Virus record (IMG/VR): IMGVR_UViG_3300009509_000008
Span: 1-64,000 of that record
Length of the DNA: 64,000 nucleotides
DNA from: a virus
Strand: one strand, 5' to 3'
The stretch's first letter is position 1. Each line of letters begins with the position of its first letter. Below are positions 18,260 to 20,530 of this stretch, one piece after another. Made by a program: the position numbers and the translations under genes. Below the pieces are notes generated by a model. The model worked only from the letters and a program-made list of their open reading frames with translations, did not search any database and had not been told where the DNA came from.

Positions 18260-20530
18260 ATGAGCGTACCTCTACACGAGGCCATCGAGGAGTTCGCCAA
18301 GCTTGCTGAGATTGATCTCAACGAGTTTCATCGACTGAGCAAGAAGAACGTCTTCAACAGGCTCGAGACATTCCTCACACCAAAGATCCCAGAGGAAGAT
18401 CCAGACCTTGCTCAGAAAGCTCAAGCAGCAACGCAGGCAGAGAGGGAATACTTCAAGAAGCGCTACAACGTCACTGCTCGACTCACCGGCTCGATGCCAC
18501 TCAAACTGGGGGTTCCAGGTGACGTTGATCTTGACTTCTACTCCCGGATCAAAAGTCCCCAGAAGTTCAATCAGGTCGTGGCTCGACTTGAGAAGAACCC
18601 CAACTACATCGGGAGCCAGTACAACAAGCCGGGCGCCGCCTTCCAGGTCTACCAAAGGAAGGCTCGTGGGAAGGACGACTTTCCGGTCGACTTCGCAATT
18701 GCCTATGGCCCGGACGCTGATCGTCTATCTGGTCAGATAAACGAGAAGGAACGAGCAGCGGCCGAGCTCCCGAAGGAGCTGAGAGAAGCTCTGGTGGCCA
18801 AGAAGCTGATCCTCAAGAACACGCCCTTTGACATCAAGCACAAGCGCTACAAGGCTTGGAAGCGGAACTTGGACAAGGCCCTCGGAGGCGAGGCCATCCG
18901 CCTCAAACGAGAGCCACACCCTGATCTTCTCGCTGATCTAGAAAAGAAGGCGGTCAGTGCTGAGGACATAGCTGGTGCCGCAAGGAGGATTGGAGCCAAG
19001 GTCATCCCAGACGATACGCTGAAGGCCTTCGGTGCTTTTGCCTCTCCGACGAGAGCTCAGATGAAGAAGGTCGTCAGGATGGGGACGCCCGATTGGCAGA
19101 AGGGGATGCTTCCAGAGGCGATGGAGCAGTCCCTAGAGAAGATCCTACGTGAAAGTCCAGGAGAGGTATTCGTGGAGCCGGGAGCGGGGAGGATACTTTC
19201 TCCTACGGCAACTGGAAAAACGCTGAAGCAACTGGATGAGATCGCCGCAGTACATGAGGGGCTAGAGCGTAGTGTAAAGCCGCATGAGATACAGTACTCA
19301 TCTCTGCATCTGAGCCCCAAGGTGCCAGCACAAGAGCTGAACCTGATCAATAGGGCTACTCCGGATCTGTCAGAAGCGGCCGAAAGACTTCGATCGCTAC
19401 GTGAAGCTGGAGGCGAGCACGGCCTCCTACGTCAGCAACTGCAGGAGCAGTTCGGCGAGCGTGCCGAAGAGTTCATGCAGCCGGGGAGGAAGATCCCGAA
19501 GGCGATGATGAAACGCCTCACCGGTGCCCAGCGACCAGAAATCTCTAAGCCGCAGGCGTACAAGATGATGGGAGGAGCGCAGCAGCACTTGGTAGAAGAG
19601 GCCCAGCGTGGTTTTCCTGAGCCTCGCATAAAGAGCCGAAGGGTCACTGAGAGCGTTCTGAGCCCGGACGACCCATCCATTCCAGCAGATGTGCGTGCCC
19701 AGCTACAGAAGTCAGCGGAGGTCATGGACCTCACCAAGCCCGAAGACTTCACGAAGTTCCAGAAGTTCGTTTCTCGTCAGGACATCTACGGGCATCGTAC
19801 CCCGCACGCCGAGGCGGTTCTCGGTAGCGGAAAGATCATCTCTGCTCTCGAGGCTTTGCAGAAAGGTAAGATCAAGAGCGTGGAGACTGGGCGTGGTGTA
19901 GGGGCTCGCAAAGATATCAGCATCGACAACAAGCTCACCAGCACGCAGATACAGGGGCTCAAGGATGCTCTCCTTGTTCCTACAACGACCAAGGTCGATT
20001 CCGACAAGGCAGCCGACATCGCCTCAGAGGCTGGGATGGAGTACAACGAAATGATGGCTGAGTTCCTCCGCCGGAAGAAGGGGGACATCAAGAAGCACCT
20101 TGGCACAGTGAGCGATCCAGAGGAGTTTCGGCGCAGTCACTTGAGCATACCCAAGCTCGGACCCAACATCTTCGTCACCAAGGGAGGGCTCATGGATGAG
20201 CCCAAGTACGGAGACGTTGGGCTTCTGATCCGATCCAGAACAGCCAAGCCCTCACCATTCGCCAACACGCTTACAGATGAGCACATCATTGAGCAGAGAA
20301 AGCCTGGTGATCCACGAAGCGTCAGCGTTCGCTCAAGCCTAGTCATAGCTCCGCAAGCAAAGGTCAGAACTCTCAGTCGGAAGTTCCCAGGCTACAAATT
20401 CGTCAAGGAGGAGCAAATCCCTGACGAGCTAAGAAAAGTGCTCTACAAACCAACTCGCTCTCCCAAAGAGATAGCGACACGTATCATTCCAAAGCTTCTC
20501 AGCGGGGAGCTTCGTCTCCAGCATAGGTGA
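18260..20530 (+). CDS. Multidomain protein: Pol-beta-family nucleotidyltransferase + HExxE domain + ADP-ribosyltransferase-like domain
   Basis: LTGSMPLKLGVPGDVDLDF..PVDFAI (GS..DxD..D); VHEGLE; C-terminal YGHRT..VLGSGKIIS..IFVT..YG..DEHII (ART-like, less certain). Confidence 0.55.
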   Translation: MSVPLHEAIEEFAKLAEIDLNEFHRLSKKNVFNRLETFLTPKIPEEDPDLAQKAQAATQAEREYFKKRYNVTARLTGSMPLKLGVPGDVDLDFYSRIKSPQKFNQVVARLEKNPNYIGSQYNKPGAAFQVYQRKARGKDDFPVDFAIAYGPDADRLSGQINEKERAAAELPKELREALVAKKLILKNTPFDIKHKRYKAWKRNLDKALGGEAIRLKREPHPDLLADLEKKAVSAEDIAGAARRIGAKVIPDDTLKAFGAFASPTRAQMKKVVRMGTPDWQKGMLPEAMEQSLEKILRESPGEVFVEPGAGRILSPTATGKTLKQLDEIAAVHEGLERSVKPHEIQYSSLHLSPKVPAQELNLINRATPDLSEAAERLRSLREAGGEHGLLRQQLQEQFGERAEEFMQPGRKIPKAMMKRLTGAQRPEISKPQAYKMMGGAQQHLVEEAQRGFPEPRIKSRRVTESVLSPDDPSIPADVRAQLQKSAEVMDLTKPEDFTKFQKFVSRQDIYGHRTPHAEAVLGSGKIISALEALQKGKIKSVETGRGVGARKDISIDNKLTSTQIQGLKDALLVPTTTKVDSDKAADIASEAGMEYNEMMAEFLRRKKGDIKKHLGTVSDPEEFRRSHLSIPKLGPNIFVTKGGLMDEPKYGDVGLLIRSRTAKPSPFANTLTDEHIIEQRKPGDPRSVSVRSSLVIAPQAKVRTLSRKFPGYKFVKEEQIPDELRKVLYKPTRSPKEIATRIIPKLLSGELRLQHR

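Follow-up and report, generated by a model that had tools for sequence, protein, structure and literature searches.

A three-module phage protein, probably loaded into the virus head and cut at recurring K-x-A leaders

In phage T4 the internal proteins IPI-III and Alt carry a capsid-targeting sequence that is removed by the prohead protease gp21 and that was reportedly described by Mullaney and Black in 1996. It is a short leader that ends in a head-protease motif, L/I-x-E, common to capsid and scaffold proteins, and its cargo includes an ADP-ribosyltransferase (ART). Here we analyze a gene at 18260-20530 on the + strand of a 64,000-nucleotide stretch of viral DNA (positions 1 to 64,000 of IMG/VR record IMGVR_UViG_3300009509_000008, hereafter called the window), whose product of 756 amino acids (aa) joins three unrelated modules. 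As in T4, its leader ends in a motif that is common to capsid and scaffold-like proteins; this motif is K-x-A and stands at the end of a longer F-x-x-E-L-x-K-I-A leader. Unlike in T4, such leaders recur within fusion proteins wherever two modules meet. No homology to T4 Alt was found. From sequence comparison, the likely fate of the protein is loading into the virus head, cutting into three parts and injection into the host.

Two further described systems are close to this arrangement. During head maturation of the SPN3US/phiKZ phages by gp245, N-terminal propeptides (20-254 aa) are removed from head and ejection proteins at a motif of three residues, as determined by mass spectrometry, and according to the available part of the report the SPN3US propeptides hold several motif copies and are cut into pieces (PMC10052503). 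The motif and the phage lineage differ from those of the phage analyzed here, for which processing is predicted from sequence. Phage polyvalent proteins combine ART, nucleotidyltransferase (NTase) and metallopeptidase domains, are predicted to be packaged in the capsid and processed, and have counterparts in which a domain stands alone, as described in the available part of Iyer, Burroughs, Anand, de Souza and Aravind 2017 (PMC5512222). Like them, the protein in the window unites several unrelated conflict-type enzyme domains in one phage polypeptide, three in this case, and both a portal and a TerL gene are present in the window. In the available part of that paper neither a conserved leader nor a cut-site at domain borders is mentioned and the word "linker" has no occurrence; a literature search for the leader string returned unrelated words only. 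The general idea, namely packaged and processed polyvalent proteins and protease-site leaders that trim head cargo in giant phages, is thus already in print, as far as the available parts of both papers go (PMC5512222, PMC10052503). The present case differs in its F-x-x-E-L-x-K-I-A leader, which returns at every module border and also heads stand-alone genes of these families, in an insertion event that can be clearly dated, in three families that no catalogue lists and in a constant NTase-ART pairing.

The frame at 18260-20530 (+) is open throughout its 756 codons, with both junction motifs intact and an even GC content along the gene. An earlier reading of the letters alone (the original prediction) had described this open reading frame (ORF) as a three-enzyme polyprotein with a KxA site ahead of each module, and the strings it quoted are all present: EEFAKLA at aa 10-16, DLEKKA at 226-231 and QLQKSA at 481-486. 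Residues of catalytic type are G77-S78, D90-L-D92, D144, HEGLE(R) at 332-337, YGHRT at 510-514, YGD at 650-652 and DEH at 673-675. The modules, here called N, M and C, and their leaders are located as follows.

18260..20530, + strand: whole ORF (P0001), 756 aa, architecture N-M-C
18287..18307, + strand: leader 1, EEFAKLA (aa 10-16), at the N-terminus; EFAKLA is conserved in P0002-P0007 and P0015
18308..18925, + strand: N module (aa 17-222), predicted Pol-beta-type nucleotidyltransferase with a K/R-rich C-terminal part; NTP_transf_2 in 8/21 family members, weak CD-NTase profile match
18926..18952, + strand: leader 2, LLADLEKKA (aa 223-231), junction N/M, from homologue comparison
18953..19609, + strand: M module (aa 232-450), uncatalogued HExxER...H domain, inserted relative to N+C homologues
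19253-19270, + strand: HEGLER (aa 332-337) in the M module; the downstream H is H350
19610..19690, + strand: linker after the M module (aa 451-477), low confidence (predicted local distance difference test, pLDDT, 51-76 in the last model blocks)
19691..19717, + strand: leader 3, VRAQLQKSA (aa 478-486), junction M/C; K484 is invariant in 15/15 aligned homologues
19718..20527, + strand: C module (aa 487-756), ART-like fold in the AlphaFold model, with GHRT 511-514, YGD 650-652 and DEH 673-675

When 1.84 billion representatives were searched exhaustively with HMMER, 173 matches at E ≤0.001 were obtained, and the 160 homologues in hand were classified with three hidden Markov models (HMMs), one for each module. 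N is followed directly by C in 46 of them; N-x-C occurs in 2, C before N in 4, C without N in 11 and N without a detected C in 7. M stands alone in 78 homologues, takes part in other fusions in 11 and forms M-M in 1, and the order N-M-C is represented by the protein in the window only (1 of the 160). N and C form a conserved two-enzyme unit: C is also present in 53 of the 60 N-bearing proteins, and the existence of both gene orders argues that the two are functionally linked. M, on the other hand, is a separate, widespread gene. It is the most widespread module (90/160) and is accompanied by N or C in the protein of the window alone. In an alignment of the 14 closest relatives 12 are N+C proteins that lack query aa ~229-481 entirely, and at eight related metagenome loci, at all of which N+C is a single ORF, no M module was found within 10 kilobases (kb). 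We therefore conclude that M was inserted into the N/C junction. P0019, a fusion of 1019 aa that is independent of this one and has 55% identity over M, reads LKKTA before its M module and LKKTG after it. P0014 and P0015 share the first ~20 residues and the C module but have another N-terminal module between them. The check that had been suggested for the polyprotein, whether homologues shuffle modules at KxA junctions, thus came out in its favor, with solo modules, other fusions and M inserted between two motifs. The exact 756-aa protein was seen on one contig only, and no relatives were found in IMG/VR viral contigs or among INPHARED phages.

Some side observations were made on these relatives. 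The alternative module of P0014 and P0015, which replaces the NTase, reads "VFHGT...GGTGA...VHVTP", and a similar stretch lies near the N-terminus of P0019, where an unassigned region and then the M module follow it. In P0071 a short C module and an EIEKIA leader inside the protein are followed by an extra C-terminal domain, which by eye is similar to papain/C39-type peptidases.

The KxA sites proved to be the end of the longer leader F-x-x-E-L-x-K-I-A. Stand-alone M proteins start with M-x(6)-F-x-[DS]-E-L-E-K-I-A-[AV]-[ST], and stand-alone N and C proteins start likewise (e.g. P0026, P0036, P0040, P0064, P0096). The strict pattern E[LFMI]xK[ILVM][AS] is located in the first 40 residues of 58 of the 160 homologues, where less than one is expected, and in the rest of these proteins it occurs at a rate of 0.004 per 35 positions. 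Counting only domain matches that start in the first 3 HMM positions, we found the junction lysine at the aligned offset in 26/26 internal C starts, 11/11 internal M starts and 58/59 N-terminal M leaders, followed two residues later by A, G or S in every aligned case. When domain matches starting in the first 25 HMM positions were taken (68 internal module starts), [LFMIV]xKx[AGS] lay just upstream of 35, compared with a mean of 6.3 and at most 15 when starts were placed at random 1000 times; the majority of the starts without it have EKTA, DKIA, EKVA or QKTA. At the insertion itself LLADLEKKA and VRAQLQKSA flank M, and at this place just one L-[EQDS]-K-x-[AGS] is present in the N+C orthologues. 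The three named sites are therefore positioned exactly at the homologue-defined module boundaries, as had been claimed. In the AlphaFold models of M and C the motif falls into lower-confidence first residues with a confident fold directly after it: the pLDDT of the first 10-residue block is 71 and 77 in the two models, and that of the next block is 98 in both.

The same motif recurs in the head proteins of the phage. The window belongs to a tailed-phage contig of 88,031 bases, and beyond the window this contig encodes a major head protein (69023-70150; phrog_2522, E 2.9e-13) and a head-tail connector protein. Across the contig, [LFMIV]xK[ILMV][AS] occurs 30 times in + strand (late) ORFs where shuffles give 9.5, and 6 times in - strand ORFs where 3.9 are expected; this count used a greedy ORF set that includes a few doubtful ORFs and leaves out the real capsid ORF, which was examined separately. 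About eight + strand ORFs have the strict leader close to their start (15393, 15739, 18260, 41543, 65756, 66647, 76006), with an internal position in 81177. Two low-complexity late proteins beyond the window, 66753-68138 and 81177-82145, contain 4 motif copies each, a number reached by 0/300 shuffles. In addition, a 617-aa protein upstream of the scaffold-like genes (63854-65707; 1854-3704 in locus L001) contains 8 loose copies. For this protein Pfam and PDB sequences returned nothing and PHROGs returned only a family of unknown function; the head-region ORF at 62021 also had no match in PDB sequences. As side observations, 66753-68138 has two zinc-ribbon-like Cys-x2-Cys pairs, and a leader-bearing ORF of 95 aa in a different frame overlaps its annotated start.

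At aa 20-26 the major head protein has the sequence G-K-E-K-I-A-E (EKIA at aa 22-25). Its family gave 1795 matches, and among the 120 homologues listed, all at least 69% identical, K23 is present in 120/120 and A, S or G at position 25 in 120/120. The 19 residues ahead of this stretch are less well conserved (0.67 compared with 0.92). This pattern is compatible with a short propeptide but does not prove one, because the stretch after EKIA is also well conserved (0.85 for aa 27-60). Members of the family occur on contigs of up to 198 kb, including a 93%-identical capsid protein on a 176-kb contig. By capsid the nearest cultured relative is the Salmonella phage Arash (OQ632216, 181 kb), with 29% capsid identity; given these lengths the 88-kb contig is probably incomplete. 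The K-x-A of the Arash capsid protein aligns with that of the capsid protein described here. Furthermore, the Arash structural protein gp220 (14494-15417), five genes upstream of the capsid gene, holds 6 motifs where 0.41 are expected (0/1000 shuffles), and the hypothetical protein gp225 (18849-19451) holds 3 where 0.29 are expected (3/1000 shuffles). The Arash virion proteome comprises 116 proteins, and the available part of its description contains nothing on cleavage (PMC10585845). Since Arash head proteins bear the same motif, cleavage is testable at the bench, although tblastn detected no homologue of the 756-aa cargo protein in Arash. A motif in the capsid N-terminus, in many copies in scaffold-like proteins and at the head of assorted other proteins corresponds to the distribution of prohead-protease sites in T4 and in SPN3US/phiKZ.

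As to the modules themselves, searches with the whole protein were weak (best E 0.079 in Pfam, 0.073 in PHROGs and 1.4 in PDB sequences), and Pfam reached no model on the query's own N, M and C modules. ESM Atlas gave no feature matches for M and C, and its model of the 756-aa protein has a pLDDT of 0.42. The N module had been taken for a Pol-beta NTase because of its GS..DxD..D residues, and at the level of these residues the assignment was borne out. G77 and D92 do not vary in the 21 sequences of the family, S78, D90 and D144 occur in at least 90% of them, and the hG[GS] motif, the [DE]x[DE] and the third carboxylate that mark the Pol-beta superfamily are all found. Pfam NTP_transf_2 (PF01909) was matched by 8 of the 21 members (best 4.3e-9) and not by the query module, and the family profile aligned GS...DxD with CD-NTases in the PDB, weakly, at E 0.0012. 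From its conserved residues we assign N to the Pol-beta-type nucleotidyltransferases; its C-terminal part is rich in lysine and arginine.

The AlphaFold model of the C module is confident (pLDDT 93.6, predicted template modelling score 0.88). When it was compared with a full structure library, five nucleic-acid ADP-ribosyltransferases came out on top of 48,161 chains and ARTs made up 25 of the best 50 rows; the ART structures likened to C are 8baq, 7omu, 7yk3, 7omv and 7yw4 (DarT, Tpt1/KptA). A repeat of the comparison again placed Tpt1 first and also listed KptA-DNA complexes, Rhs ART toxins and pierisin. Y650 and E674 do not vary among the 39 sequences of the C family, and H512 occurs in at least 90% of them. 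The model places H512 and E674 on strands. H512, Y650 and E674 could form an H-Y-E triad. A helical insert of 70-80 aa (aa ~555-630, window 19922-20149) is absent from many "short C" relatives and gave recurrent low-Z matches (3.9 or less) to three-helix DNA-binding domains of the homeodomain type. No ART family was among the Pfam matches of the 39 members at E up to 1, the C profile retrieved no ART from the PDB but only the NTase part and noise, and Foldseek of the model against the PDB gave nothing at E ≤0.001. Because no sequence profile ties C to any ART family, the tentative ART call of the original prediction stands at the level of the predicted fold, where the match to DarT/Tpt1-type ARTs lies below the aligner's own caution level, and does not extend to a sequence family. 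C thus differs from DarT and Tpt1/KptA in having no sequence-profile relationship to them and in carrying the helical insert, and unlike DarT it is fused to an NTase instead of belonging to a toxin-antitoxin pair.

For the M module the HEGLE motif had been read as the mark of an enzyme domain. In the 51 sequences of the family the H and the second E of HExxE(R) are invariant (51/51), and HExxER together with a downstream H is invariant or nearly so, located on a long predicted helix. A zinc-binding HExxH is absent from these sequences, which have no second His. The M profile found 0 matches in the PDB at E up to 10, Pfam gave scattered single matches for the 51 members, and Foldseek of the model against PDB and BFVD returned nothing at E ≤0.001. 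In the VIA structural comparison at least 20 of the best 50 rows were, by title, zinc metallopeptidases or YbeY-type hydrolases, including ArdC. M may be described as a putative metal-dependent hydrolase of zincin-like shape.

Taking these findings together, we give somewhat better than an even chance to the view that the leader is a head-maturation-protease site and a capsid-loading signal on an injected polyvalent effector. The gene product would be a polyvalent virion-cargo precursor of an Arash-like large phage. Its leaders would direct the precursor into the prohead, where the maturation protease would cut it at aa ~231 and ~486 and probably also at ~16. The released NTase, zincin-like hydrolase and ART-like enzyme would then enter the host with the DNA. 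M, which normally has its own leader-bearing gene, would here have been spliced in at a leader, and new cargo would be gained by recombination at leader-coding DNA. A whole enzyme between the conserved N+C pair, with intact motifs on both sides, is what would be expected, and would be harmless, if the chain is cut at these places anyway. N and C would probably work jointly, with NTP and NAD+, on a substrate that is either a nucleic acid or a nucleotide. We favor a joint modification of nucleic acid, with ADP-ribose supplied from NAD+ and a nucleotide from NTP, over a protein modification of the T4 Alt kind, because the structural relatives act on DNA or RNA, the C insert resembles DNA-binding domains and the N tail is basic. 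A link to phage NAD reconstitution or to tRNA repair (Tpt1 plus NTase) was also considered, and no result obtained here supports either. Of the injected effector cassette originally proposed, the modules and their shuffling were recovered and the fold classes find support, while packaging, cutting and function are what we infer.

Several findings weigh against a leader that serves for loading and cutting. The motif is not above chance within the one protein: bare KxA occurs 5 times where shuffles have a mean of 6.6 (1617/2000 shuffles reach 5), and [LFMIV]xKx[AGS] occurs 5 times where shuffles give 4.1, so that its significance rests on the comparison with homologues. Internal junction motifs are degenerate except for K and the small residue. 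No prohead protease gene was recognized by Pfam, PHROGs or PDB-sequence search among 48 ORFs of the 88-kb contig. The conservation of EKIA in the capsid protein could simply mark the start of the conserved fold. The 756-aa gene lies beside tail-like and membrane-like genes, ~50 kb from the capsid gene, and a large single-chain RNA polymerase encoded among the late genes at 45009-51188 (+) has no K-x-A motif copy. Finally, the fold matches of both M and C are below the caution level of the structural aligner.

Four other explanations were weighed. The M module itself may be the processing peptidase, cutting at K-x-A in cis in this protein and in trans where it is a solo gene, either in the capsid or after injection. 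We regard this as unlikely, though it draws on the near-invariance of HExxER and the downstream H on a long helix in the 51 sequences and on the at least 20 metallopeptidase or YbeY-type rows among the best 50. M is also the most widespread module (90/160) and bears the leader itself (58/59), as self-processing proteases do; and in the available part of the polyvalent protein paper a zincin peptidase is the commonest polyvalent domain and is called "the solution" for processing (PMC5512222).

It is likewise improbable, in our estimate, that the leader stays uncut and serves for docking or assembly, binding e.g. scaffold, portal or a chaperone, so that the three-enzyme chain works whole, packaged or not. 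The greatest regularity of the leader at true N-termini (F at -6, E at -3, L at -2) and its weaker form at internal sites would fit such a role, as would the missing protease among the 48 scanned ORFs, and the N4 virion RNA polymerase and ArdC are transferred uncut, according to the available part of the same paper (PMC5512222). However, K and the small residue are kept at 37/37 internal junctions in orthologues that are ~40% identical, the low-complexity scaffold-like proteins hold many copies, which is typical of degradation sites, and the conserved enzyme pair tolerates an insertion of 250 aa between its halves.

A set of cytoplasmic late enzymes that is not cargo at all, and serves phage DNA/RNA modification or nucleotide/NAD metabolism with the motif as a linker left by gene fusions, has in our view a small chance of being correct. 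It would agree with the distance of the gene from the capsid gene and with the nucleotide chemistry shared by the NTase, the NAD-using ART-like fold and a NUDIX domain in an upstream gene; C furthermore resembles the DNA/RNA-acting DarT, Tpt1 and KptA and has a homeodomain-like insert. Yet it leaves unexplained both the invariance of the junctions and the presence of the same leader on small membrane-like, portal-adjacent and scaffold-like proteins and at the capsid N-terminus. That N-M-C is an assembly or sequencing artefact joining separate genes is very improbable: the exact protein is known from one contig and the architecture from 1/160 homologues, but the frame is open for 756 codons with both junction motifs intact, GC content is even over the gene, N+C is a single ORF in 46 other clusters and at 8/8 related loci, and P0019 has M fused internally with matching flanks.

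If the leader is indeed a load-and-cut signal, it would provide a sequence rule to list the injected proteins of a very large uncultured phage group and a simple tag for packaging foreign proteins. The three uncatalogued enzyme families include an ART-like one that is nearest to the DNA/RNA-modifying DarT and Tpt1 and is paired with a nucleotidyltransferase, which suggests an undescribed nucleic-acid-marking step at infection. A wider proposal, which we put forward only tentatively, is that Arash-like phages use a portable K-x-A leader of ~15 residues to make head cargo of any enzyme, whether encoded by its own gene or spliced in and released by protease. The window would then show a recent splice of a zincin-like enzyme between the halves of an NTase and DarT/Tpt1-like ART pair, itself an undescribed injected system marking host or phage nucleic acid with ADP-ribose and nucleotides at entry.

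Other leader-bearing genes in the window are the following.

15393-15749 and 15739-15999, + strand: two small ORFs with the leaders FFDELEKIA and FFTELEKIA, in the same cassette region
41543..42580, + strand: Gly/Ala-rich protein upstream of the portal gene, with the leader EFEKLA

The - strand carries replication genes, namely a family A DNA polymerase, a primase, a DnaB-like helicase and a RecA-like protein. Late genes on the + strand encode the portal, a gp5-like spike, the large terminase and the single-chain beta-beta' RNA polymerase, which has 2059 aa with Rpb2 and Rpb1 domains (Pfam E down to 1e-60) and is located between the portal and spike genes. The gene at 18260-20530 is the final one of a + strand block, in which it is preceded by tail-like giants, four small ORFs (130, 118, 86 and 118 aa), a NUDIX protein and a 175-aa protein. 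The first of the small ORFs (130 aa) is visibly hydrophobic and the second (118 aa) is glycine-rich. This gene order is kept in relatives: locus L003 has NUDIX-Zn, the 175-aa protein and N+C, and locus L004 has three small proteins and N+C. The NUDIX protein is encoded at 16334-17734 (+). Besides its NUDIX domain (E 5.6e-5) it has a region weakly similar to Zn_peptidase_2 (E 0.0021), and it seems to be another multi-enzyme protein of this cassette.

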